Source: Arcobacteraceae bacterium (lineage in GTDB: Bacteria; Campylobacterota; Campylobacteria; Campylobacterales; Arcobacteraceae). Taken from it: a stretch of DNA of 64,000 nucleotides. Where the stretch lies: assembly GCA_963662945.1 (NCBI GenBank), contig OY759974.1, positions 320,001 through 384,000 of the forward strand, in the 5' to 3' direction. Shown one piece after another: positions 30,480 through 59,292 of this stretch. Positions within the stretch are counted from its first letter, which is position 1; each line of letters opens with the position of its first letter. Made by a program: the position numbers and the translations under genes. The notes below the pieces were generated by a model. It was not told the DNA's origin, ran no database searches, and saw nothing but the letters and a program-made list of their open reading frames with translations.

Positions 30480-31636
30480 TTTAGTATCTCCAATATTGTT
30501 TTATGTGCTTCTAGATTAGCTCTTGTAATAATAGGTTCCCCTTGAAAATATCTCATATTTCCATTTTCTAAAAGTAAATATTTTGATACTGGTCTATTAA
30601 AACTTCCAAAAGTTACTTTAATGAGTAAACCGCTTATATTCTTATCTTCAATATCATAACAAGATTCAAAATGCACCATATAATCATCTTTTATAATAGC
30701 ATTTGTATCTATTTTTGATTTAAGAGTCTCTTTTTCATATAAATATGGAAAAGCAAAATCATCTTCTAAATATACTTCTTCTGAGTTGTCTTTTGCTGTT
30801 ATTTTGACATCCCAAATAGTTTTTTCTTGTCTTTTCCATCTTGCTTCATATTTACTAGTAACTGCTAAATCTTCATTTGTAAGTATCTCATAATGATACC
30901 CTTTAAAGTGTTCCAAAAGAGATGTAGAATATTCAAAATAATTCGGACTATCTGTTCTAAGTTCTAAAGTTCCACCAACTTTTAAAACTCTCATACACTC
31001 TTCTATAAATTCAACACTCATAACTCGTCTATGTGGTTTTTTATCCCAAGGAACTGGAAAATGTACAAAAACTTTCCCTACACTATTTGATTTTAAAAAC
31101 TCTAAAAATAATCGTGCATCATAATTGATTACCAAAATATTTTCTATATTTTGTATTTTTGCTTGTTTTAAAACTTGCTCAATTGAGGGATAATGTATCT
31201 CTAATCCTATGATGATTTTATCAGGATTTGTTTTTGCTTGATGTAAAAGATGTACTCCACTTCCAAATCCAACTTCAACATATATCTCTTTTTCTGTATG
31301 AAAATCTTTAACAAAATAGTTAATATCTTTCAAATATTTTTCTTCTGGTTTTACTTTGTTATATATTGAATTTACATTTGAAAAAAGTACTTCACTTTCA
31401 CTTAGTTTTTCATAATCATTTAATGCTGTTTTCATAAGACTTACAGGTGTAAGTCTAGTTGCACTATCAAGTTTTACTAAATTATTTCCATTTTTTACAA
31501 CTTTTGTTAATAAAAATTCTTTGTTGTCATATACAGCACAAATTTTTTTATCATAATCACAAGTTGCTACAAATCTAAAATGTCCAGAACTACTTGTAGT
31601 AATATCGCTATGAGGTTTTAATAGAAGATGTGGCAT
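30476..31636 (-). CDS. trmB: tRNA (guanine-N7)-methyltransferase
   Basis: EVGFGSG, HFPVPW.KK.HRR, LRTD, SKYE. Confidence 0.92.
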   Translation of the reverse strand: MPHLLLKPHSDITTSSSGHFRFVATCDYDKKICAVYDNKEFLLTKVVKNGNNLVKLDSATRLTPVSLMKTALNDYEKLSESEVLFSNVNSIYNKVKPEEKYLKDINYFVKDFHTEKEIYVEVGFGSGVHLLHQAKTNPDKIIIGLEIHYPSIEQVLKQAKIQNIENILVINYDARLFLEFLKSNSVGKVFVHFPVPWDKKPHRRVMSVEFIEECMRVLKVGGTLELRTDSPNYFEYSTSLLEHFKGYHYEILTNEDLAVTSKYEARWKRQEKTIWDVKITAKDNSEEVYLEDDFAFPYLYEKETLKSKIDTNAIIKDDYMVHFESCYDIEDKNISGLLIKVTFGSFNRPVSKYLLLENGNMRYFQGEPIITRANLEAHKTILEILK

Positions 31637-51031: not shown

Positions 51032-52375
51032 TCAAATATCATCTTTTTTTCCATAAGTTTCACTAGGTTCTGCTACCATTAAAGTGTCATCTATGTTATT
51101 TATATATTGATTATCTGTTACTCTCACTTGTCCATTCATAAGCATTGGAAGAAGCCAATCTCTAAGTTTTGCTAGTTCTTGGTTTTGTTTCTTACTCTGT
51201 ATCATTTGATTAAAAATTGGCTTTATAATTTTTTGAAATTTCAAATAAGATTCTTCTTTAAATACTATTTTTAAATGCTCAATAGAACTACTTGCATGAA
51301 GTAGTATTGAACCTGTGGCATATCTATGAATTGTTTTTATTATTTCATTATCACAAAATATACAATATATTAGACTATTATCAAATTTTCCAGATTTATC
51401 ATATATTTTTCTTAGTCCTCCAGAGATTGCACCTTTTAAGCCAAAACCTAACTTTCCAACTGAACCATCAAAAGTTACAATAACATCCCTTTCATTTACT
51501 ATTTTATAATTTTTATTTGTAGAATCTATATATACTGAACTTTCACTTTGTATGTCCCCAACTCTAAAAAATTTTACACACTTTTCATTCATTTTTAAAT
51601 TTAAATATTCAGAAGCCCCTGGTTCTATACCTTTTTCAAATTCTAAAAATTCTTGCAACTTTTTAACTTCCCAAGCCTCAGGAATCTCTCTTTTTAACTC
51701 TTGATTATAAACCATCTTCCCACCTGATGATTTATAAGGTTTTCCATTCTCATCGGGGAAATCAAATTGTACAAACCAATAATCATAAAGAATTTTTGCC
51801 ATAGCTTCTAGTTCTTTATTGATTTTATTATTTAGTTCTATTTTTGAATCTATATTTTTTAAAATAACAACAATATTATCTTGAATAGTTATATTTGGTA
51901 AATCAAATTCTAATTCTTTTATTACACTTATTGGTGGGAAATTAGGTATTGTTGAATCACCTTTTTTTCCAACTATTAAATTAACTAAGTAAAAATTAAA
52001 ATAATAATAAAAGAAATCATCATTTATCACTTTATTATTTAGTCTAATTCTTAATAATGCTTGATTTATTACACCAGATTCAGCATTTTCCCTTAATTGA
52101 TAAATAGCACCATAATTCACGCCAGAACAAGATACTAAAAAATCTTTCGGTTTCACTTCAAATTTATACATTTTTTTATCATAATACTCTTTTGAAATAT
52201 AATATCTACCAATAGATTCATCTTTTTGTAAAACAACACCTTGTTCATAAACTTTATATGTTGTATGGTCTTTTGGAACAAAAATTTCTTTTTTTAAATC
52301 TCCTCCAAATGGACCTCGTAAAAACCCTTTGTCTTTTAATACAACATCTTTAAATTTAAATTTATTTGTTTCCAA
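51032..52375 (-). CDS. hsdS: type I restriction-modification specificity subunit
   Basis: Two TRDs; IDSKIELNNKINKELE, WFVQFDFPDENGKPYKSSGG, LRDWLLPMLMNGQV. Confidence 0.92.
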   Translation of the reverse strand: METNKFKFKDVVLKDKGFLRGPFGGDLKKEIFVPKDHTTYKVYEQGVVLQKDESIGRYYISKEYYDKKMYKFEVKPKDFLVSCSGVNYGAIYQLRENAESGVINQALLRIRLNNKVINDDFFYYYFNFYLVNLIVGKKGDSTIPNFPPISVIKELEFDLPNITIQDNIVVILKNIDSKIELNNKINKELEAMAKILYDYWFVQFDFPDENGKPYKSSGGKMVYNQELKREIPEAWEVKKLQEFLEFEKGIEPGASEYLNLKMNEKCVKFFRVGDIQSESSVYIDSTNKNYKIVNERDVIVTFDGSVGKLGFGLKGAISGGLRKIYDKSGKFDNSLIYCIFCDNEIIKTIHRYATGSILLHASSSIEHLKIVFKEESYLKFQKIIKPIFNQMIQSKKQNQELAKLRDWLLPMLMNGQVRVTDNQYINNIDDTLMVAEPSETYGKKDDI

Positions 52376-53990
52376 GAGTTAACCCCATTAACTGCTTCTT
52401 TATCTCATCTTCCAAGACTTTTGATTCACTAAACATAGCTTTTAAATTATCACTAAATCTTTTCATCTTAGTATCGAACTCATCTTTAGTTATATCCACA
52501 TATTCTATTTTCACATCAAAATATTGCCCTGCAGAAAAAGAGTAATTTTTAGCTTTTATATCATTATAAGAAACAACTACAGAAAAATCATCAACTACTT
52601 TTTTATCATTAAAAGTATCTATGATTTGTTGTTCTTCTTTTTCATCTAAAACTGTTTTTTGGTTTTTACCCTCTTTTACAGTTTTCCCTAAATTTGAAGC
52701 ATCTATTAAAACTACGCCTTCTTTGTTTGTATCATCTATAAATATGATTGATACATTTGTTCCTGTTGTAGCAAAAATATTACTAGGCATTGATACAACA
52801 CCACCTAACATTTTGTTTTCAATTAGATGTTGTCTTATCTTTTTATCTATTCCACTTTGAGCAGTTATAAATCCAGTTGGTACTACAACGGCTGCTTTTC
52901 CACCTTTTTTTAGTGCATAAATAATATGCTGTAAAAACATACTATAAATAGACATAGACTCTTTTTTCTTTGCTGGTATTTTTGGAATACCTGCAAAAAA
53001 CCTATCGTGGTTTTCTTTAGAGTCTAAATCATCTCTATAATCACTAAAATCAGTTTTAAAAGGTGGATTTGATACGATATAATCAAACTTTTGTAAACTA
53101 TCTCCCTCTTTATGATATGGGCTTAAAAGAGTATTTCCTTTAATCACATTTGATATAGAATGAACAAGATTATTTAGAATCAAATTTAGTCGTAAAAGAC
53201 TTGATGACTTTTGAGATATATCTTGTGAGTAGAGACTACATCTATCTTCACCTATAGCGTGGGCGATGTTCATCAGAAGTGTTCCACTTCCTGCACTTGG
53301 GTCATAACAAGTTACGCTTTTAAGCTCTTCATTTTCTTTTACTAAAATAGCCGCCATAATTTTTGCAACCGCATGAGGTGTATAATATTCTGCATACTTT
53401 CCACCACTATCACTGTTATAATCTTTGATTAAGTATTCAAAAATAGTTGCATAGAAATCATACTTTTGATTAAAAATATTTTCAAAACTAAAAGCTACAA
53501 GTTTATTGACAATCGCTTTAAAAAAAGCATCTTTATCATCAATAATATATTTACTCAAAGTATCAAAAAGCTCTATTTTTGCTCCACCTTCTGTTTTTAC
53601 GGAAAAGATATCATTGTTTTCTATAGATATTTGATGTAAAGTATCATCAAAAGTTTGTGCAAAATCAGGACTGTCTTGTATATTAAATAAATGTGTTATA
53701 AGATACTCTGGTTTGAGCTTTGCAGCTTTTGCTCCTATTCGTCTTAGTATTTTATTTCTTTGTTCTTCACTTAAGTTTGTATAGTACTCTTCCCAACTTG
53801 GAGCATTTTTGATATTTTCATCTATCTTTTTTATCTCATAGGCAAATTTATCATTTAAAAATTTGTATAAAAATACTTGAGTGATGATTTTAAACTCATT
53901 TCCATCGTTTCCAAGTCCAAAGTTTGCACATACTGCTTTTAAATTATCTATTAACTTTTTTGTTTCTCTTTCAAACTCTACTATTACCAA
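52362..53990 (-). CDS. hsdM: type I restriction-modification N6-adenine methyltransferase
   Basis: EYYTP, YDPSAGSG, VSNPPF. Confidence 0.93.
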   Translation of the reverse strand: MVIVEFERETKKLIDNLKAVCANFGLGNDGNEFKIITQVFLYKFLNDKFAYEIKKIDENIKNAPSWEEYYTNLSEEQRNKILRRIGAKAAKLKPEYLITHLFNIQDSPDFAQTFDDTLHQISIENNDIFSVKTEGGAKIELFDTLSKYIIDDKDAFFKAIVNKLVAFSFENIFNQKYDFYATIFEYLIKDYNSDSGGKYAEYYTPHAVAKIMAAILVKENEELKSVTCYDPSAGSGTLLMNIAHAIGEDRCSLYSQDISQKSSSLLRLNLILNNLVHSISNVIKGNTLLSPYHKEGDSLQKFDYIVSNPPFKTDFSDYRDDLDSKENHDRFFAGIPKIPAKKKESMSIYSMFLQHIIYALKKGGKAAVVVPTGFITAQSGIDKKIRQHLIENKMLGGVVSMPSNIFATTGTNVSIIFIDDTNKEGVVLIDASNLGKTVKEGKNQKTVLDEKEEQQIIDTFNDKKVVDDFSVVVSYNDIKAKNYSFSAGQYFDVKIEYVDITKDEFDTKMKRFSDNLKAMFSESKVLEDEIKKQLMGLTLGNK

Positions 53991-56900
53991 TTATATACTC
54001 CATTGTATTCATTTAAATATTCTGTTGCTATCATAGTATTGATGTATCTAAAAGATTCATCATTTAATTTTATTTTATTGTTATCTTCAAACTCTACATC
54101 TACAATAGGCTGTGTTTCTGCTATAAAAAAGTTTTCATGTTTTAATATGGCACTGTTATTTAAAACTTTTTCATCAAGTTGCATTTTTATCTTCTCTAAA
54201 GCACTAAAAATCTTACTTTGTTTATCTGTTATATTGTTTTGTTTGATTCTTTTGTGCATTCTTGCATATTTTCTATCACCTTTGTATTTATCTTTTAAAA
54301 GATCATTTTGTCTATTTAATTCTCGAATTTTATTATCTATTTTTTTAAGTTCCCCAATATTCTCATTCATCTCGTCTTGGGTTATTTCACTTAGATTTTT
54401 ATTTTTAAATAATCTTTCAAGCTCCTCTTTTAAAGTGATATAAAGAGGGTCTTTTTTATCAAAATTATTTTGAAAAGCTTCTCTTGTTTTTCTCAATGTA
54501 TTTTTTAATTTATCCGCTAAAATAAGCTCCTCTTCACTTATCTTTGTAAATTTAAAAATAATATCTTCTAGGGCTAGATTTATGATATTTGTATTTTCAT
54601 CACCCTTTTCTAAAGCTTGTTTTTGATTTAAAAGATTTAAATGATTTGAAGCTTCTCTGTAAAGTAGATTTAACTTTCTAAAATCTAATTTTTCTAGTAA
54701 TTCAAAATGTCCAAATAGCCTTATGAGATTATATAGACTTTTTGCATTTTCAAGTGCTTTTTTTATCTCTTGCATCTTTTTAATATCTTGAATTTTGTTT
54801 ATTTGTTGTGAAAATAGTTCAGCATTTAAAGTGTCATATTCAAATAAAACATCTTTTATATTTTCTATTTCATCCGCTATCTCTTCTTTTGATTTAAAAA
54901 GTGAAGAGTAATATTCCATCTCATCACCAAGTTCATTTTGTAACTCTTCAAAATATGCTTTATTTGTAGCATCAAACTCTTTACTTATATCTGCAAAATC
55001 TACTACATAACCATATTTAAACTTTTTGTATGTACGATTTACTCTTGTAAGGGCTTGTAATAAGCCATGTTGTCTTATGATTCTACCTAGATAGAGCTTT
55101 TTAAGTCGTGGAGCATCAAAGCCCGTAAGAAGCATATTATAAACAAAAAGAAAATCTACCTTTCCATCTTTGAACTCTTCTACCCAATCTTTTCTATCCT
55201 GTTTTGTTCCTATATCGTGTAAAATGATTTTGGCTGTTAAATCTCCTTTTACTTTAATATCATCTGTTCCATAAGTTGTTTGAGGTTGGGCTACAAGTTG
55301 TGCAGAAAAGTTTACATTGTTACTAGCTTCTAGCTTTGTATATTTTGACTGAAATATCTCATACATTTTTTTAGCTTGTGCAGAACTATCACAAATAACC
55401 ATAGCTCCAATAGAATCATCATCAAATCTTACTTTGCTATTTTTAAAATCATTTACAATATAAGCTAACATTGGTTCTACAAATTTTTTATGAGAATAAA
55501 CTTCTTCTGTTTTTAAGTTACCTTGTAAAACTTCTATATCTTCAATTGCTTTTTGTAATTGTAACTTATAGTTTGTCTCTATCTCTTCCCTTATAAGCCT
55601 CAATGTATAACCATCAGCAATAGAAGAATTATAATAATACTTATGAATATAATTACCAAACAATGATTTTGAACTTGTATCTTCTCCTAGCAAAGGAGTT
55701 CCTGTTAGTCCAATTTTTATTGCATTTTTATCAGATGTTTCTAGGTTTGCTAAAAAACTTCCTTTTGGGTTATAACTTCGATGTACTTCATCTAGGAAAT
55801 AGACTCTTTGAATGTTAATATCATAATCTTGTATAGAGATAACATCTGGATCATCTTTAAACCTTTGGATATTTACTACTGTGATTTCATATTCACCTCT
55901 ATCATTATGAATAGCAGTAGTTTTTTTAATATCTTTTGCAAAATCATCACGAGTAGCAATAGTGTGAACTTTTAAACCTCTTGCTGTAAACTCTTTTTTT
56001 GCTTGTGTTAATAAGTCTAATCTATCAACAATAAAATAAAATTTTGGAATAACCCTTTTAGTTTGAAAATAGTTTGTCAGATATCTAACATTGTAAAAAG
56101 CAAGTGCTGTTTTACCACTTCCTTGGGTATGCCAAATGATACCTTTTTTTATACCATCATCAAGTTTACTTTCAATTGCTTTTGTTGCAAATATTTGAGG
56201 ATATCTCATAATATGTTTTTGTACACCATCTTTTGATTTGACATAAGCAATTCCAAACTCTAATAAAAACTTTAATCTATCTTTTGAAAACAACGAAGTA
56301 CTTAATCGGTTTGTTGAAGTTTCAGGTGATTTATTTGTAATAAATTCCGCATTGTTTTTTATCACTTCAAGATTATTATCTTTTAGTATATCATTTTCTG
56401 TTTCATCATCTAAATCTTTTAAAATATTTGCTAAATTTAGTTTTTCTTCTTCTCTAAAATAGTTAAAAATAGGATTTTTTGAAGGTGTAGCATAAAATGC
56501 TCCCTCTATTGGTTCAATAGAATTATCATCATATTCCATATTGTTAGAAAAAACCATAAGTTGTGTTATATTGATAAATTTTCTAAACCTATCATTTGAA
56601 AATCTAACATTTATTCTATCTCTCTCAGCTAATACACCATCTTTATTATTTGGTTTTTTAACCTCTATAAAAACCAATGGCATACCATTGATTAAAAGTA
56701 TAATATCAGGTCTAAACTCTTCATCACTATTTTTATATGGAAGTTCAGTAAGCACATGAAAAGAGTTATTTTCAAAATTTTCAAAATCAAGAAGTTTTAT
56801 ACCTGACTTTTCTATAATCCTCTGATAAAATGCTTTTCCTAAATCTTCATAGTCAAGTAGTAAAGAAACCTCTTCAAAAACTTTATTTGAATCTAAATCA

Positions 56901-57064
56901 TCTGTTTTGTTATTTATTCTCTCAATACTAGATTTAAAAATATCAACAAAAATATTTGTATTTATATCCCAGTTTGAGTCTTTTAAAGATAAATATTTAT
57001 AACCTAATCTCGTAAGGTGTAGTATGGATGGTATTTTTACTCTGCTGTCTTCATTGTATTTCAT
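53984..57064 (-). CDS. hsdR: type I restriction endonuclease R subunit
   Basis: RPD...IEVK nuclease motif, HTQGSGKT, DEVH, TGTP, MLLTGFDAP, QALTRVNR. Confidence 0.94.
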   Translation of the reverse strand: MKYNEDSRVKIPSILHLTRLGYKYLSLKDSNWDINTNIFVDIFKSSIERINNKTDDLDSNKVFEEVSLLLDYEDLGKAFYQRIIEKSGIKLLDFENFENNSFHVLTELPYKNSDEEFRPDIILLINGMPLVFIEVKKPNNKDGVLAERDRINVRFSNDRFRKFINITQLMVFSNNMEYDDNSIEPIEGAFYATPSKNPIFNYFREEEKLNLANILKDLDDETENDILKDNNLEVIKNNAEFITNKSPETSTNRLSTSLFSKDRLKFLLEFGIAYVKSKDGVQKHIMRYPQIFATKAIESKLDDGIKKGIIWHTQGSGKTALAFYNVRYLTNYFQTKRVIPKFYFIVDRLDLLTQAKKEFTARGLKVHTIATRDDFAKDIKKTTAIHNDRGEYEITVVNIQRFKDDPDVISIQDYDINIQRVYFLDEVHRSYNPKGSFLANLETSDKNAIKIGLTGTPLLGEDTSSKSLFGNYIHKYYYNSSIADGYTLRLIREEIETNYKLQLQKAIEDIEVLQGNLKTEEVYSHKKFVEPMLAYIVNDFKNSKVRFDDDSIGAMVICDSSAQAKKMYEIFQSKYTKLEASNNVNFSAQLVAQPQTTYGTDDIKVKGDLTAKIILHDIGTKQDRKDWVEEFKDGKVDFLFVYNMLLTGFDAPRLKKLYLGRIIRQHGLLQALTRVNRTYKKFKYGYVVDFADISKEFDATNKAYFEELQNELGDEMEYYSSLFKSKEEIADEIENIKDVLFEYDTLNAELFSQQINKIQDIKKMQEIKKALENAKSLYNLIRLFGHFELLEKLDFRKLNLLYREASNHLNLLNQKQALEKGDENTNIINLALEDIIFKFTKISEEELILADKLKNTLRKTREAFQNNFDKKDPLYITLKEELERLFKNKNLSEITQDEMNENIGELKKIDNKIRELNRQNDLLKDKYKGDRKYARMHKRIKQNNITDKQSKIFSALEKIKMQLDEKVLNNSAILKHENFFIAETQPIVDVEFEDNNKIKLNDESFRYINTMIATEYLNEYNGVYNW

Positions 57065-57123
57065 TAATTATCCAAATTGTTTACATTATTAAAACATTTA
57101 TTTTACAACAACTATCCAACTAT

Positions 57124-57152
57124 TTGACTTAAAAATCATTATCTGCTATAAT
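57124..57152 (+). promoter_or_regulatory. near-consensus sigma70 promoter
   Basis: TTGACT (57124-29), 17-nt spacer, extended -10 TGcTATAAT (hexamer 57147-52); no ORF downstream. Confidence 0.8.
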
Positions 57153-57158
57153 ACACTT

Positions 57159-57293
57159 ACAATTCGCCTACGGGCACACCCACTTTTTTAAGTGGGGTCA
57201 ATAAATTACTTCATTTAGGTGAAGCTACCGCTAAAAAGATTTTCTTTTTAGGTCAGGCTAAATTAAAGGGAACTATTAAAGTTCCCTTTTTTT
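57159..57293 (+). ncRNA. putative ~135-nt multi-hairpin non-coding RNA
   Basis: Lies between the consensus promoter and an intrinsic terminator; four hairpins, one with a C(UACG)G tetraloop; GC-richer than flanks. Confidence 0.65.
57265..57293 (+). terminator. intrinsic terminator, possibly bidirectional
   Basis: AAAGGGAACT-ATTAA-AGTTCCCTTT followed by T run; abuts the stop codon of the PemK-like gene. Confidence 0.8.
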
Positions 57294-57816
57294 ATATCCC
57301 TAAATATTTTTTAATAAACTCTTTTATTTTCTGAATATCTTCTACTTTAAGTTCAGGATATATCAAACTTTCCAATCTTTTTGTATCGATTGTTTTGATT
57401 TCATTACATATTACTAAGGAATCTTTTTCCAACCCTAAATACTTTAGCCTTTTTTGTTTATCAAAAAAACTTTTAGAAACTTCAGATTTTAATTCATAAT
57501 GAAAATGTTTTATTTTTGTCTTCTCTTTTTTAGAAGTAAGCGGCATCACTATAACTTTTTTATTGTAAGTAGCATGATTAAAATTATTGCTTGATATTAC
57601 GATACAAGGTCTTATTGTAGTCAGTTTTTCTTTAGAAAAGTGGCAACTAGTCTCACTACCAATATTTTCTCCGACTTCAAACCACCACAAACTCCAAGGC
57701 TGTATTCTAAACTTAACACTTCCATCTTTTTTATGATTTATATTTATTTTTCCATTAATGTGTTTTTTCTTATCGTTCCAGCTGTCCAGTCTATTATTTT
57801 TATCATCATACATCAC
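57292..57816 (-). CDS. PemK/MazF family endoribonuclease-like protein
   Basis: WW.EVGENIGSE, RPCIVIS...N, VMPLTS, S.VIC.EIKTID.KRL. Confidence 0.82.
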   Translation of the reverse strand: MMYDDKNNRLDSWNDKKKHINGKININHKKDGSVKFRIQPWSLWWFEVGENIGSETSCHFSKEKLTTIRPCIVISSNNFNHATYNKKVIVMPLTSKKEKTKIKHFHYELKSEVSKSFFDKQKRLKYLGLEKDSLVICNEIKTIDTKRLESLIYPELKVEDIQKIKEFIKKYLGI

Positions 57817-58472
57817 AACATCTCCCTATCACGAAAACTCAAAAAACCTTCCCTCGTAAATATCACATGATCTAGTAGTTCTATTCCTAAAATTTTTCCA
57901 GACTCTTGAAGTCTTTTTGTTACTTGCATATCTTCATGACTAGCTTCCAAAATGCCACTTGGATGATTGTGTGCTACTATGATACTCGCACATCTATTCT
58001 CAACAGCAGGGGCGAATACTTCTCTTGGATGTACTAAGCTTTGGTTGAGTGTACCTATGGTTATCACTCTTGTTTCACACAGATGATTCGCACCATCAAG
58101 ATACAAACACAAGAAATACTCTTGTCTTTTATCTTTGTAGCTTTTTAGCTCCTCATATACATCACTTGCATTTGTGATTTTTTTATTTTGTTTGATTAAG
58201 TATCTGCGAGAAAGTTCAAGGGCTGAGATGATTTGACTCGCTTTTGCAACTCCTAATCCATGTATAGTAAGAAGTTTTTCAAGATTTAAAGTATCAAAAT
58301 CATCTTCAAAGAGTTTGACTATCTCTCGTGAAAGTGCAAATACATCTTTCCCTTTGATACCACTTCCTAAAAGTATAGCTACTAGTTCATAATCTTTTAG
58401 AACTTTGACACCTTTTTGGAGTAGCTTTTCTCTTGGTTTATCGAAATTGTTTAGTTCTGTTATAGTTTTCAT
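57813..58472 (-). CDS. radC: RadC family JAB-domain protein
   Basis: KPREKL, ELVAILLGSG, GLG.AKA, VHPREVF, AHNHPSG...S.ED, LLDHVI. Confidence 0.93.
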   Translation of the reverse strand: MKTITELNNFDKPREKLLQKGVKVLKDYELVAILLGSGIKGKDVFALSREIVKLFEDDFDTLNLEKLLTIHGLGVAKASQIISALELSRRYLIKQNKKITNASDVYEELKSYKDKRQEYFLCLYLDGANHLCETRVITIGTLNQSLVHPREVFAPAVENRCASIIVAHNHPSGILEASHEDMQVTKRLQESGKILGIELLDHVIFTREGFLSFRDREML

Positions 58473-58530
58473 ATCTAACTATAACTAAATATAAAACAGT
58501 GTTTTAAAAATATTGCAGTTTGTTAAGTTT

Positions 58531-59292
58531 TTATTTTAGTTGAAAAAAGCTACTTCCACTTCCACTAAAAAAGTTTTTCCCATTTTCATAGATTTTTAGT
58601 TCTGGATAGACGCTTAATGCTGGTGCATATAAATCATTTGCTTCTTCTATAGATAAAGTTTCTAAAATATCTTTGCTTTTCATTGAAAGTAATTTTTGAG
58701 CCTCTTCTTTAGAAATCTCTTTATAAAACTTATCTCGAAATTTTGTAAAGATAGCACCTGTATTACACTCTATTTTAGGAGTAAAAGTTTGTATCTCCAA
58801 AACCTCTTCATCAAACTTTTCTACAATCTCTCCAATCCCTGTTACATTTGCACTATCATACTCATAGATGAAAAAAGGAACATCCGCACCAATCTTTGCT
58901 CCAATCTTAGCTAACTCATCACGACTAAGTTTCAAATCTGCCAGTATATTTACCATCAACATAAAAGTAGCACAGTTACTACTTCCACCACCTAGTCCTG
59001 CAAATTCTGGAATATTCTTCTCTACAACTACTTTATAGTTCTTGAATATTTCTTCTAAATTCTTAAACATACTGTATAGTTCTAAGTATGCTTTATAAAT
59101 AGTGTTTTTTTGGGTTTCACAACCAAAATCACCCTCTAAAGTAAACTCTTCAAACTCACCTTGTTCAAATCTTATTACATCATAAAGAGTATGTACTCGA
59201 ACAAATCGTGATACTATTTCGTGATAATTGTCTCGTTTACCAGCTATTTTTAAAAAGATATTTACTTTAGCATAAGATTTTTTTTCTATCAT
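58531..59292 (-). CDS. ispE: 4-diphosphocytidyl-2C-methyl-D-erythritol kinase
   Basis: AKVNIFL, P..AGLGGGSSN, GADVPFF, SGSGSS. Confidence 0.94.
   Translation of the reverse strand: MIEKKSYAKVNIFLKIAGKRDNYHEIVSRFVRVHTLYDVIRFEQGEFEEFTLEGDFGCETQKNTIYKAYLELYSMFKNLEEIFKNYKVVVEKNIPEFAGLGGGSSNCATFMLMVNILADLKLSRDELAKIGAKIGADVPFFIYEYDSANVTGIGEIVEKFDEEVLEIQTFTPKIECNTGAIFTKFRDKFYKEISKEEAQKLLSMKSKDILETLSIEEANDLYAPALSVYPELKIYENGKNFFSGSGSSFFQLK

Follow-up and report, generated by a model that had tools for sequence, protein, structure and literature searches.

A subfamily of PemK/MazF-like toxins in Campylobacterota with a conserved convergent RNA: a candidate RNA-antitoxin module

Introduction

MazF is the textbook example of a toxin that is neutralized by a protein (type II) and, to our knowledge, the only accepted RNA antitoxins that bind a protein are those of the ToxN-like families. 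The locus described here raises the question of what restrains a toxin of the PemK/MazF family beside which no antitoxin gene can be recognized. It lies in a 64,000-nucleotide (nt) stretch from an Arcobacteraceae bacterium (positions 320,001 to 384,000 of contig OY759974.1, GenBank assembly GCA_963662945.1), to which we refer as the window and in whose coordinates all positions are given. The toxin gene, a long-form member of the PemK/MazF family (57292-57816, minus strand; Pfam PemK_toxin), converges on a predicted small RNA encoded on the opposite strand. The original prediction, which was made from the sequence of the window, considered the toxin an orphan and the RNA its candidate antitoxin. 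The promoter, the four hairpins, the terminator and the PemK/MazF gene that it described are all present at the positions that it gave; the toxin, however, is no orphan but a member of a large family, with a distant relative on the plasmid pVir. In this work, we trace the toxin and the RNA through this family, find them to be inherited together and weigh the ways in which the RNA might act.

Results

A convergent small RNA at the 3' end of the toxin gene

The predicted RNA of the window is composite and about 135 nt long (57159-57296, plus strand; its limits are deduced from the promoter on one side and the terminator on the other). Its sigma-70-type promoter (57124-57152, plus strand) consists of the -35 element TTGACT (57124-57129), a 17-nt spacer and the extended -10 element TATAAT (57147-57152), preceded by TG; it matches the consensus in 11 of 12 positions and is the best of the 8 promoter-like sites in a 1.9-kb scan, a number close to that in shuffled sequences (mean 8.9). 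The terminator stem (57265-57289) is the sole terminator-like site in that scan (shuffled sequences average 0.5), and its T run (57287-57293) overlaps the stop codon of the toxin gene (57292-57294). The segment 57155-57296 (142 nt) folds with a predicted energy of -43.4 kcal/mol, compared with -24.3 +/- 3.5 kcal/mol for 200 shuffled sequences (z = -5.5), none of which folds as well. Two modules can be distinguished within the RNA, both on the plus strand. RNA-S (57159-57202), which is captured by the covariance models R1 and R2 described below, comprises a 5' single strand, hairpin 1 (57166-57175) and hairpin 2 (57179-57196), whereas RNA-L (57203-57296) comprises the single strand AAAUUACU, hairpins 3 (57209-57224) and 4 (57231-57251), the terminator stem and a U run. 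A scan of positions 56000-59000 against Rfam at E <= 1 returned no match, the pemK motif of Rfam (Weinberg et al. 2017) included, so that the RNA matches no known family in that collection; a search for tRNA and tmRNA genes found none at the RNA locus.

No candidate for a protein antitoxin could be identified. The 228-nt spacer between the toxin gene and hsdR contains no open reading frame (ORF) of at least 30 amino acids (aa) except for a 34-aa frame that runs across the hsdR start and, more generally, no antitoxin ORF was found in the spacers flanking the toxin gene either in the window (at least 30 aa) or in its relatives. The spacer thus holds no credible ORF, as had been predicted.

The promoter is conserved well beyond the window. 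Among 139 distinct homologous RNA loci, the -10 box matches the consensus in at least 5 of 6 positions in 133, and the spacer is exactly 17 nt long in 119. A total of at least 9 of 12 consensus positions was found at 124 of the 139 loci, compared to 14 of 137 mirror-side controls and 36 of 694 random controls. This conservation argues for transcription towards the toxin gene and against the view that the element is a mere terminator of that gene.

Co-occurrence of the RNA and the toxin

We searched for the association from both sides. When positions 57120-57300 were compared by blastn with the genomes of 184 species from the same family, 30 loci were recovered, the common part of which was the promoter with hairpins 1 and 2, not the rest of the RNA. 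A covariance model of this promoter-proximal hairpin 1-2 core (R1) found matches in 54 of 151 sampled genomes of the family, representing 17 of 22 genera, and gave 78 matches on the 71 loci that were fetched. For each match, the longest frame ending convergently nearby was compared with Pfam, which was feasible for 74 matches, the other 4 having no testable frame. In 53 of these 74 cases, the frame is a PemK_toxin at E <= 1e-3 (47 of them above the Pfam cut-off); 7 of the other 21 frames are truncated or divergent PemK genes (L036, L038, L062, L068, L072, L089 and L091; L and G numbers denote loci and genomes). The remaining 14 are unrelated neighbors (radC three times, xseB and others), that is, RNA-only loci. 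Frameshifted or truncated toxin genes retain an intact RNA. Outside the family, R1 matched none of 144 genomes in a class-wide sample, a result that is not evidence of absence given that the model is too narrow and the sample consisted mostly of Campylobacter and Helicobacter.

Some genomes are rich in these modules, such as G066, in which 5 R1 matches and 8 toxin matches are spread over several contigs, and some loci carry two or three RNA copies in tandem orientation; these cases comprise G066, L195, L197 and L121. The two identical copies 227 nt apart around a stretch of N at L010/L041 (G070:C49) probably reflect an assembly or masking effect rather than biology. At L086, L092 and L105, the intact RNA is abutted by a 204-aa frame that belongs to no Pfam family and shares its last residues with one clade of toxins, as though another gene had taken the place of most of a toxin.

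From the toxin side, an alignment (A3) defined a subfamily with the N-terminal helix motif F/Y-D-x-W-N-x-I/V-K-K and invariant G-N-G-E and R-P. The window protein belongs to it, with the invariant W, N and K, G-N-G-E and R-P all aligned and a profile E value of 6.6e-30. In the 184 genomes, the A3 profile gave about 100 strong matches (E <= 1e-20), in addition to weaker ones to canonical MazF genes. A convergent RNA is present at 38 of 40 strong matches that were fetched because they had no R1 match: 27 show a promoter and two hairpins in convergent orientation immediately beyond the stop codon, with new stem sequences; 8 carry the RNA element within a C-terminally extended ORF; and the RNA was recognized with the broader model R2 at L128 and L133 and by eye at L125. 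The 8 toxins with extended ORFs, which at first appeared to be without an RNA, are accordingly not exceptions. The two that do lack it are L140, where the toxin gene is truncated by an insertion sequence, and L144 in G055, a long-form relative.

The latter (G055:C1:1891739-1893433), which encodes a 211-aa protein (43% identity), is the only intact toxin without a recognizable convergent RNA that we have seen; a structured stretch and a terminator are located downstream on the toxin's own strand instead. Other toxins are unusual in their coding sequences. The C-terminal tails of 35-60 aa in L193, L195, L206, L208, L212, L213, L222 and L235 are antisense translations of the RNA gene, in which Pro-Glu-Gly recurs as the complement of hairpin 1; three of the tails (L206, L208 and L213) adjoin or overlap a downstream co-directional gene, the start of which in L206 looks hsdS-like by eye, with no family scan made. 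In L122, L130, L131 and L134 (G118, G067, G045 and G116), the PemK domain follows a cytidylyltransferase-like domain in frame, without a stop codon in between. These frames are open over 279-358 aa, contain the promoter and the two hairpins within their 3' ends and are followed by a gene resembling one of the pseudaminic-acid pathway.

A scan of one genome per prokaryotic species with a smaller alignment (A4) yielded at least 493 relatives, of which the best 80 were examined. These come from Arcobacter, Sulfurimonas, Sulfuricurvum, Sulfurovum, Sulfurospirillum, Nitratifractor and Helicobacteraceae, along with single records from Flavobacterium, Ca. Halobeggiatoa and Ca. Paceibacteria. Whether homologous toxins carry a comparable downstream structure had been set beforehand as the test on which the proposed pairing could fail. 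They do: R2 matches at the 3' end of the toxin gene in 72 of these best 80, 7 more have variants recognizable by eye, and one lies at a contig edge. All 79 of 79 R2 matches are on the strand opposite to the toxin, and the stop codon lies, depending on the family member, at -2 to +133 nt from the RNA start. Altogether, the arrangement of promoter and hairpins was found beside homologous toxins in well over 150 loci. The combination of convergent promoter and hairpin RNA also accompanies four relatives on viral contigs that have the N-terminal motif, whereas canonical MazF genes of the same genomes and viral contigs (L150-L157) have no such RNA. The window protein itself was found in none of 400 other genomes in a sample of the phylum. 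In the Ca. Halobeggiatoa record (L183), a member from outside Campylobacterota, the loop of hairpin 2 is enlarged by about 80 nt of inserted sequence.

Selection on the RNA

In an alignment of 75 distinct RNA-S sequences fitted to the covariance model, 99.3% of the cells are paired, and 9 of the 10 pairs of hairpins 1 and 2 changed on both sides (150 cells). None of 500 shuffles reached the observed covariation, and slid registers were only 39-59% paired. An independent MAFFT alignment of 29 sequences gave 98.9% paired cells and 3 pairs with double changes. Judging from these alignments, the compensatory substitutions in the stems are a mark of selection at the level of RNA. A peptide-coding function of the RNA was considered and rejected because the stems vary in a compensatory manner and a start codon context is lacking. 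In RNA-L, the single-stranded motif is invariant, and the primary sequence of single-stranded parts is kept across toxins that are only about 40% identical.

The toxin protein

The window protein matches Pfam PemK_toxin (PF02452) with an E value of 6e-14 and 52.6 bits, the cut-off being 23.1. No NCBIfam family was found for 4 toxins of the subfamily, and PADLOC reported none for 3. In an AlphaFold2 model (predicted local distance difference test 83.9, predicted template modeling score 0.80), an N-terminal helix (residues 5-20) is followed by a beta core and a C-terminal helix. The top Foldseek matches of this model are MazF of Staphylococcus aureus and of Bacillus subtilis (4mzp, 4mzm, 1ne8 and 4mdx; E about 1e-7, target template modeling score about 0.8), and profile searches of the Protein Data Bank returned MazF, EndoA and PemK only. 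The R and P of the R-P motif are invariant, PLTS or PLTT is conserved, and these align with VRPV and the Thr of ITG in S. aureus MazF; we take the Arg of Arg-Pro and the Thr or Ser after the conserved Pro to be the catalytic residues of MazF/PemK. The toxin is thus predicted to be an endoribonuclease of the MazF/PemK fold with an additional N-terminal helix.

The composite RNA of the window

Although all its elements are present, the RNA of about 135 nt, which had been proposed as one unit, consists of two modules, of which only hairpins 3 and 4 with the terminator track the long-form toxin. RNA-S is the type of RNA that accompanies short-form toxins. It occurs in a single copy in this genome, as judged by R1, and a scan with the subfamily profile found no short-form toxin there. 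A relic of such a toxin is left in the form of five codons, FIDPT, followed by a stop codon (57188-57205, minus strand), which lie within and beside hairpin 2 and are preceded by another stop codon. The C-termini of short-form toxins end in LIDPT, ISPT or FGPT and have the same placement relative to hairpin 2.

A metagenome scan with an alignment of long-form toxins (A7) provided 9 loci. In six of these (L241-L246), the long-form toxin has a convergent RNA with a promoter of its own that contains only the equivalents of hairpins 3 and 4 plus the terminator, without hairpins 1 and 2, and starts with an invariant single strand that matches positions 57203-57210 of the window. Hairpin 3 has 2 of its 5 pairs changed on both sides among 13 sequences. 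In contrast, in the window, G133, G104, L238 and L239, a promoter of the short-form type with hairpins 1 and 2 directly precedes the long-form RNA on its 5' side. At L238, the toxin is 98% identical to that of the window and hairpins 3 and 4 are identical, whereas hairpins 1 and 2 are of a different type. In L245, the long-form unit is repeated in tandem (a 41-nt unit, 2.1 copies, 84% matches). The absence of tandem repeats noted in the original prediction, therefore, applies to the window with its single unit but not to this relative.

By sequence, then, RNA-L is the cognate RNA of the 174-aa long-form toxin, while the promoter and hairpins 1 and 2 derive from a short-form module whose toxin was lost. 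Presumably, a long-form toxin together with its RNA replaced the body of the short-form toxin and would now use the promoter of the short-form module.

Genomic context

On the minus strand of the window, the gene order is an ispE-like kinase gene, radC, the toxin gene, hsdR, hsdM, hsdS and smpB, with the RNA on the other strand between the toxin gene and hsdR. The toxin ORF may start at GTG 57816 (174 aa) or at ATG 57813 (173 aa), and this ATG overlaps the stop codon of radC (57813-58472, minus strand; Pfam RadC, E 2.5e-40, and UPF0758_N). A full type I restriction-modification (R-M) set (51032-57064) separates smpB from the toxin module and, like radC, is identified by Pfam matches: hsdS (51032-52375), hsdM (52362-53990) and hsdR (53984-57064), all on the minus strand. 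Both the overlap with radC and the adjacent type I R-M system had been noted in the original prediction and are borne out by these matches. Relatives have other R-M genes at the same site, which suggests a variable defense hot spot. At L027 (G119), the toxin-RNA module is placed between hsdM and hsdS.

Across the relatives, the module was found on either side of radC, within R-M operons, on plasmids and in prophages. The upstream neighbor of the toxin gene varies among radC, xseB, a relaxase gene and hsdM, and radC is not beside the toxin in L021, L027, L028, L030, L031, L034 and the plasmids. Because these other loci lack it, radC lies outside the module; its proposed co-induction with the toxin is not a family feature, given the many contexts without radC. 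For the same reason, namely the variable gene context of the toxin, RadC was rejected as an antitoxin.

Relatives on pVir and other mobile elements

Searches with tblastn detected members of the subfamily on pVir of Campylobacter jejuni 81-176, on plasmids of Helicobacter suis and Nitratiruptor and in CJIE4 prophages, where they are annotated as type II toxins or as 'toxin MazF'. Apart from the pVir gene (30634-31038), no toxin-family gene is annotated on that plasmid, and the gene itself has no annotated antitoxin. Its product has an N-terminal FDEWNEVKK helix and fits the subfamily profile with a probability of 99.85% and an E value of 1.5e-30. To the 3' side of the gene, we identified by eye a convergent TTGATT-17-TATAAT promoter and a three-hairpin RNA, the last hairpin of which abuts the stop codon. 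R2 found nothing above noise at the loci of pVir, the CJIE4 prophage and the H. suis plasmid, and the RNAs there were all recognized by eye.

A pair named CjrA/CjpT, in which CjpT is the toxin, is reported to stabilize pVir, and we infer that CjpT is the PemK-family gene of this plasmid. Passages of two papers, both citing Shen et al. (2016, Mol Microbiol 101:909), describe CjrA as an antisense small RNA that serves as the antitoxin in a type I system of pVir in strain 81-176 (PMC10470494, PMC7826846); in the supplement of the latter (PMC7826846), a cjrA entry was not found. Apart from these references to CjrA, our literature search did not turn up any account of a convergent small RNA beside a MazF/PemK toxin.

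Discussion

Taken together, these observations make it probable that the locus is a two-gene toxin-antitoxin (TA) module in which the RNA is the antitoxin. We are led to this reading by the co-inheritance of RNA and toxin, the absence of a protein partner, the conservation of the catalytic motifs and the asymmetry of decay: broken toxins with intact RNAs and RNA-only loci stand against a single intact toxin without RNA, as expected of a TA pair. The anatomy, conservation, covariation and co-inheritance of the pair are seen directly in the genomes, and from them we infer that the protein would be toxic, that the RNA would bind and neutralize it and that some trigger would release it. The RNA-antitoxin module of the original prediction, hence, survives as a conserved, co-inherited toxin-RNA pair without a protein antitoxin, but not as an orphan oddity.

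Under the model that we prefer, a near-consensus promoter would drive constitutive synthesis of the small RNA in the direction of the toxin gene's 3' end. In the window, the leftover promoter and hairpins 1 and 2 of the short-form module would now drive the long-form RNA, with its hairpins 3 and 4 and terminator. The structured RNA, with the single-stranded AAAUUACU and two hairpins, would bind to the RNA groove of the toxin as an inhibitor, and the toxin might trim the bound RNA. If RNA synthesis stopped, for instance upon loss of the element or shut-off by a phage, the toxin would be freed.

The strongest alternative concerns the way in which an antitoxin RNA would act. The module would be the same, but the RNA would be a cis-antisense, type I-like antitoxin that pairs with the 3' end or 3' untranslated region of toxin mRNA reading through the shared hairpin, which would lead to double-strand cleavage and 3' decay or would block expression; in the short forms, interference by convergent transcription could contribute. 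Several observations favor this possibility and weigh against direct binding. At every locus examined, the RNA gene runs towards the toxin gene and abuts or overlaps its 3' end, a strictly conserved convergent geometry that cis-antisense action needs and a purely protein-binding RNA does not. The short-form RNAs have no terminator after hairpin 2, and none was found inside the toxin gene in the 2 loci inspected, so that these RNAs must extend into the toxin gene in antisense. The terminator of the window, when read on the toxin strand, is followed only by an interrupted U tract, and read-through is therefore possible. The pVir toxin, which fits the subfamily profile and has a convergent promoter and hairpin RNA, belongs to an apparently homologous pair that passages of the literature assign to type I (PMC10470494, PMC7826846). 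Furthermore, the alignment used for the pair counts favors pairing by construction, and ToxN is not among the best 29 of at least 500 Foldseek matches, the toxin being a MazF by fold.

Other features weigh against antisense control of the long-form pair. In the window and L241-L246, the RNA stops at the stop codon and leaves the coding region uncovered (no such RNA was found in L144 of G055, and L240 could not be resolved). Conservation of a single-stranded primary sequence across toxins with about 40% identity is not required by complementarity in cis; a tandemly duplicated unit exists in L245; and the toxin is a 174-aa RNase rather than a small membrane peptide. Since the long-form RNA has a terminator of its own that places its end on the stop codon, there is no antisense overlap with the coding sequence. 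No complementarity of the RNA to the translation start of the toxin was detected in the 7 loci compared (z about 0 in 5 of these, the strongest being -2.1), and the variable distance between the stop codon and the RNA start can be counted in favor of direct binding. Because the RNA end on the stop codon, the conserved single-strand motif, the discrete hairpins, the tandem duplication and the lack of complementarity to the start all fit it better, we favor direct, type III-like action of the RNA on the protein for the long-form pair, a preference held with somewhat less than even confidence; the antisense mechanism, for its part, is a substantial possibility to which we would assign about one chance in three.

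A different role of the RNA appears unlikely. It might be linked to the nuclease without being an antitoxin, either as an RNA dedicated to the enzyme as its substrate or product (a regulatory or guide-like RNA that undergoes processing) or as the companion of a non-toxic, domesticated RNase. RNA-only loci whose promoters are intact although the genome has no cognate toxin (hairpins 1 and 2 of the window; L022 in G001) and the in-frame fusion of some toxin domains to sugar-nucleotide enzymes would be compatible with such a role, but the finding of decayed toxins with intact RNAs, as opposed to almost no intact toxin without an RNA, fits an antidote, and the pVir relative is reported to be a TA pair that stabilizes its plasmid. 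Finally, that the true antitoxin is a protein (RadC or an unannotated small peptide), the hairpins being only a bidirectional terminator and the promoter fortuitous, is very improbable despite the overlap of the toxin start with the radC stop in the window and many relatives, considering that radC is absent from beside the toxin at many loci, the RNA contains no conserved ORF, the compensatory substitutions in the stems point to selection on RNA, and the promoter is conserved far above the controls.

Returning to the RNA as antitoxin, one may go further and suppose that MazF-fold toxins are held by direct binding of a convergent hairpin RNA that they themselves process, that these RNAs evolve as modules and that the pair serves as an abortive-infection switch in the defense islands, plasmids and prophages of Campylobacterota, which would make it a missing link between type II MazF and type III ToxN. 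We consider this full scenario doubtful and offer it as speculation.

A proteic RNase toxin with an RNA antitoxin is a known kind of system, and one distant member of the present family seems to have been studied already. What we did not find in print is the extent of the family, the two-hairpin RNA with its covariation, the separate long-form RNA, the composite in the window and the tandem unit. The results thus delineate a large MazF subfamily, with at least 493 relatives, that has a conserved, covarying partner RNA without an Rfam model, and provide a family, defined by its sequences, for direct tests of RNA control over a MazF fold. They place the single published Campylobacter case, CjrA/CjpT, in a broad evolutionary frame, indicate that the RNAs evolve in a modular fashion, by fusion, replacement and duplication, and may account for many 'type II toxin' genes without an antitoxin in Arcobacter, Sulfurimonas, and plasmids and prophages of Helicobacter and Campylobacter.

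Compared to the type II systems MazEF and PemIK, the module has the same toxin fold and catalytic motifs but differs in the window by the lack of a MazE or PemI gene and by the extra N-terminal helix with invariant Trp-Asn and Lys. The type I systems txpA/RatA and bsrG/SR4 of Bacillus consist of small hydrophobic toxin peptides and 3'-overlapping antisense RNAs. With these, the module shares the convergence of the two genes, a small RNA with a strong constitutive promoter and an overlap at the 3' end, which is limited to two bases of the stop codon in the window and extensive in the short forms; the toxin, on the other hand, is predicted to be a soluble RNase of 130-180 aa, not a small hydrophobic peptide. 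The pVir PemK gene, presumably that of the CjrA/CjpT pair, is close in design, as it belongs to the same subfamily as the window toxin and likewise has a convergent promoter and a hairpin RNA, which in pVir ends at the stop codon. The window protein is, however, only 31% identical to the pVir protein over 108 residues and 40 aa longer, and its RNA, a composite with its own terminator, is not detectably homologous to that of pVir by R2.

In the type III systems ToxIN, CptIN and TenpIN, the antitoxin is encoded upstream on the same strand, as tandem RNA repeats in an array, and ToxN shares the Kid/MazF fold. The module differs from these in that the window toxin matches Pfam PemK_toxin only, not the ToxN/CptN/TenpN family, and resembles MazF in its fold, and in that its RNA gene is convergent and lies downstream, the window and, as a rule, the family having one unit, with 2.1 copies in L245 alone. 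It resembles them in having an endoribonuclease-type toxin without a protein antitoxin, a short structured RNA unit, presumably made in excess, that is repeated in tandem in one relative, and a location in defense islands or on mobile elements.

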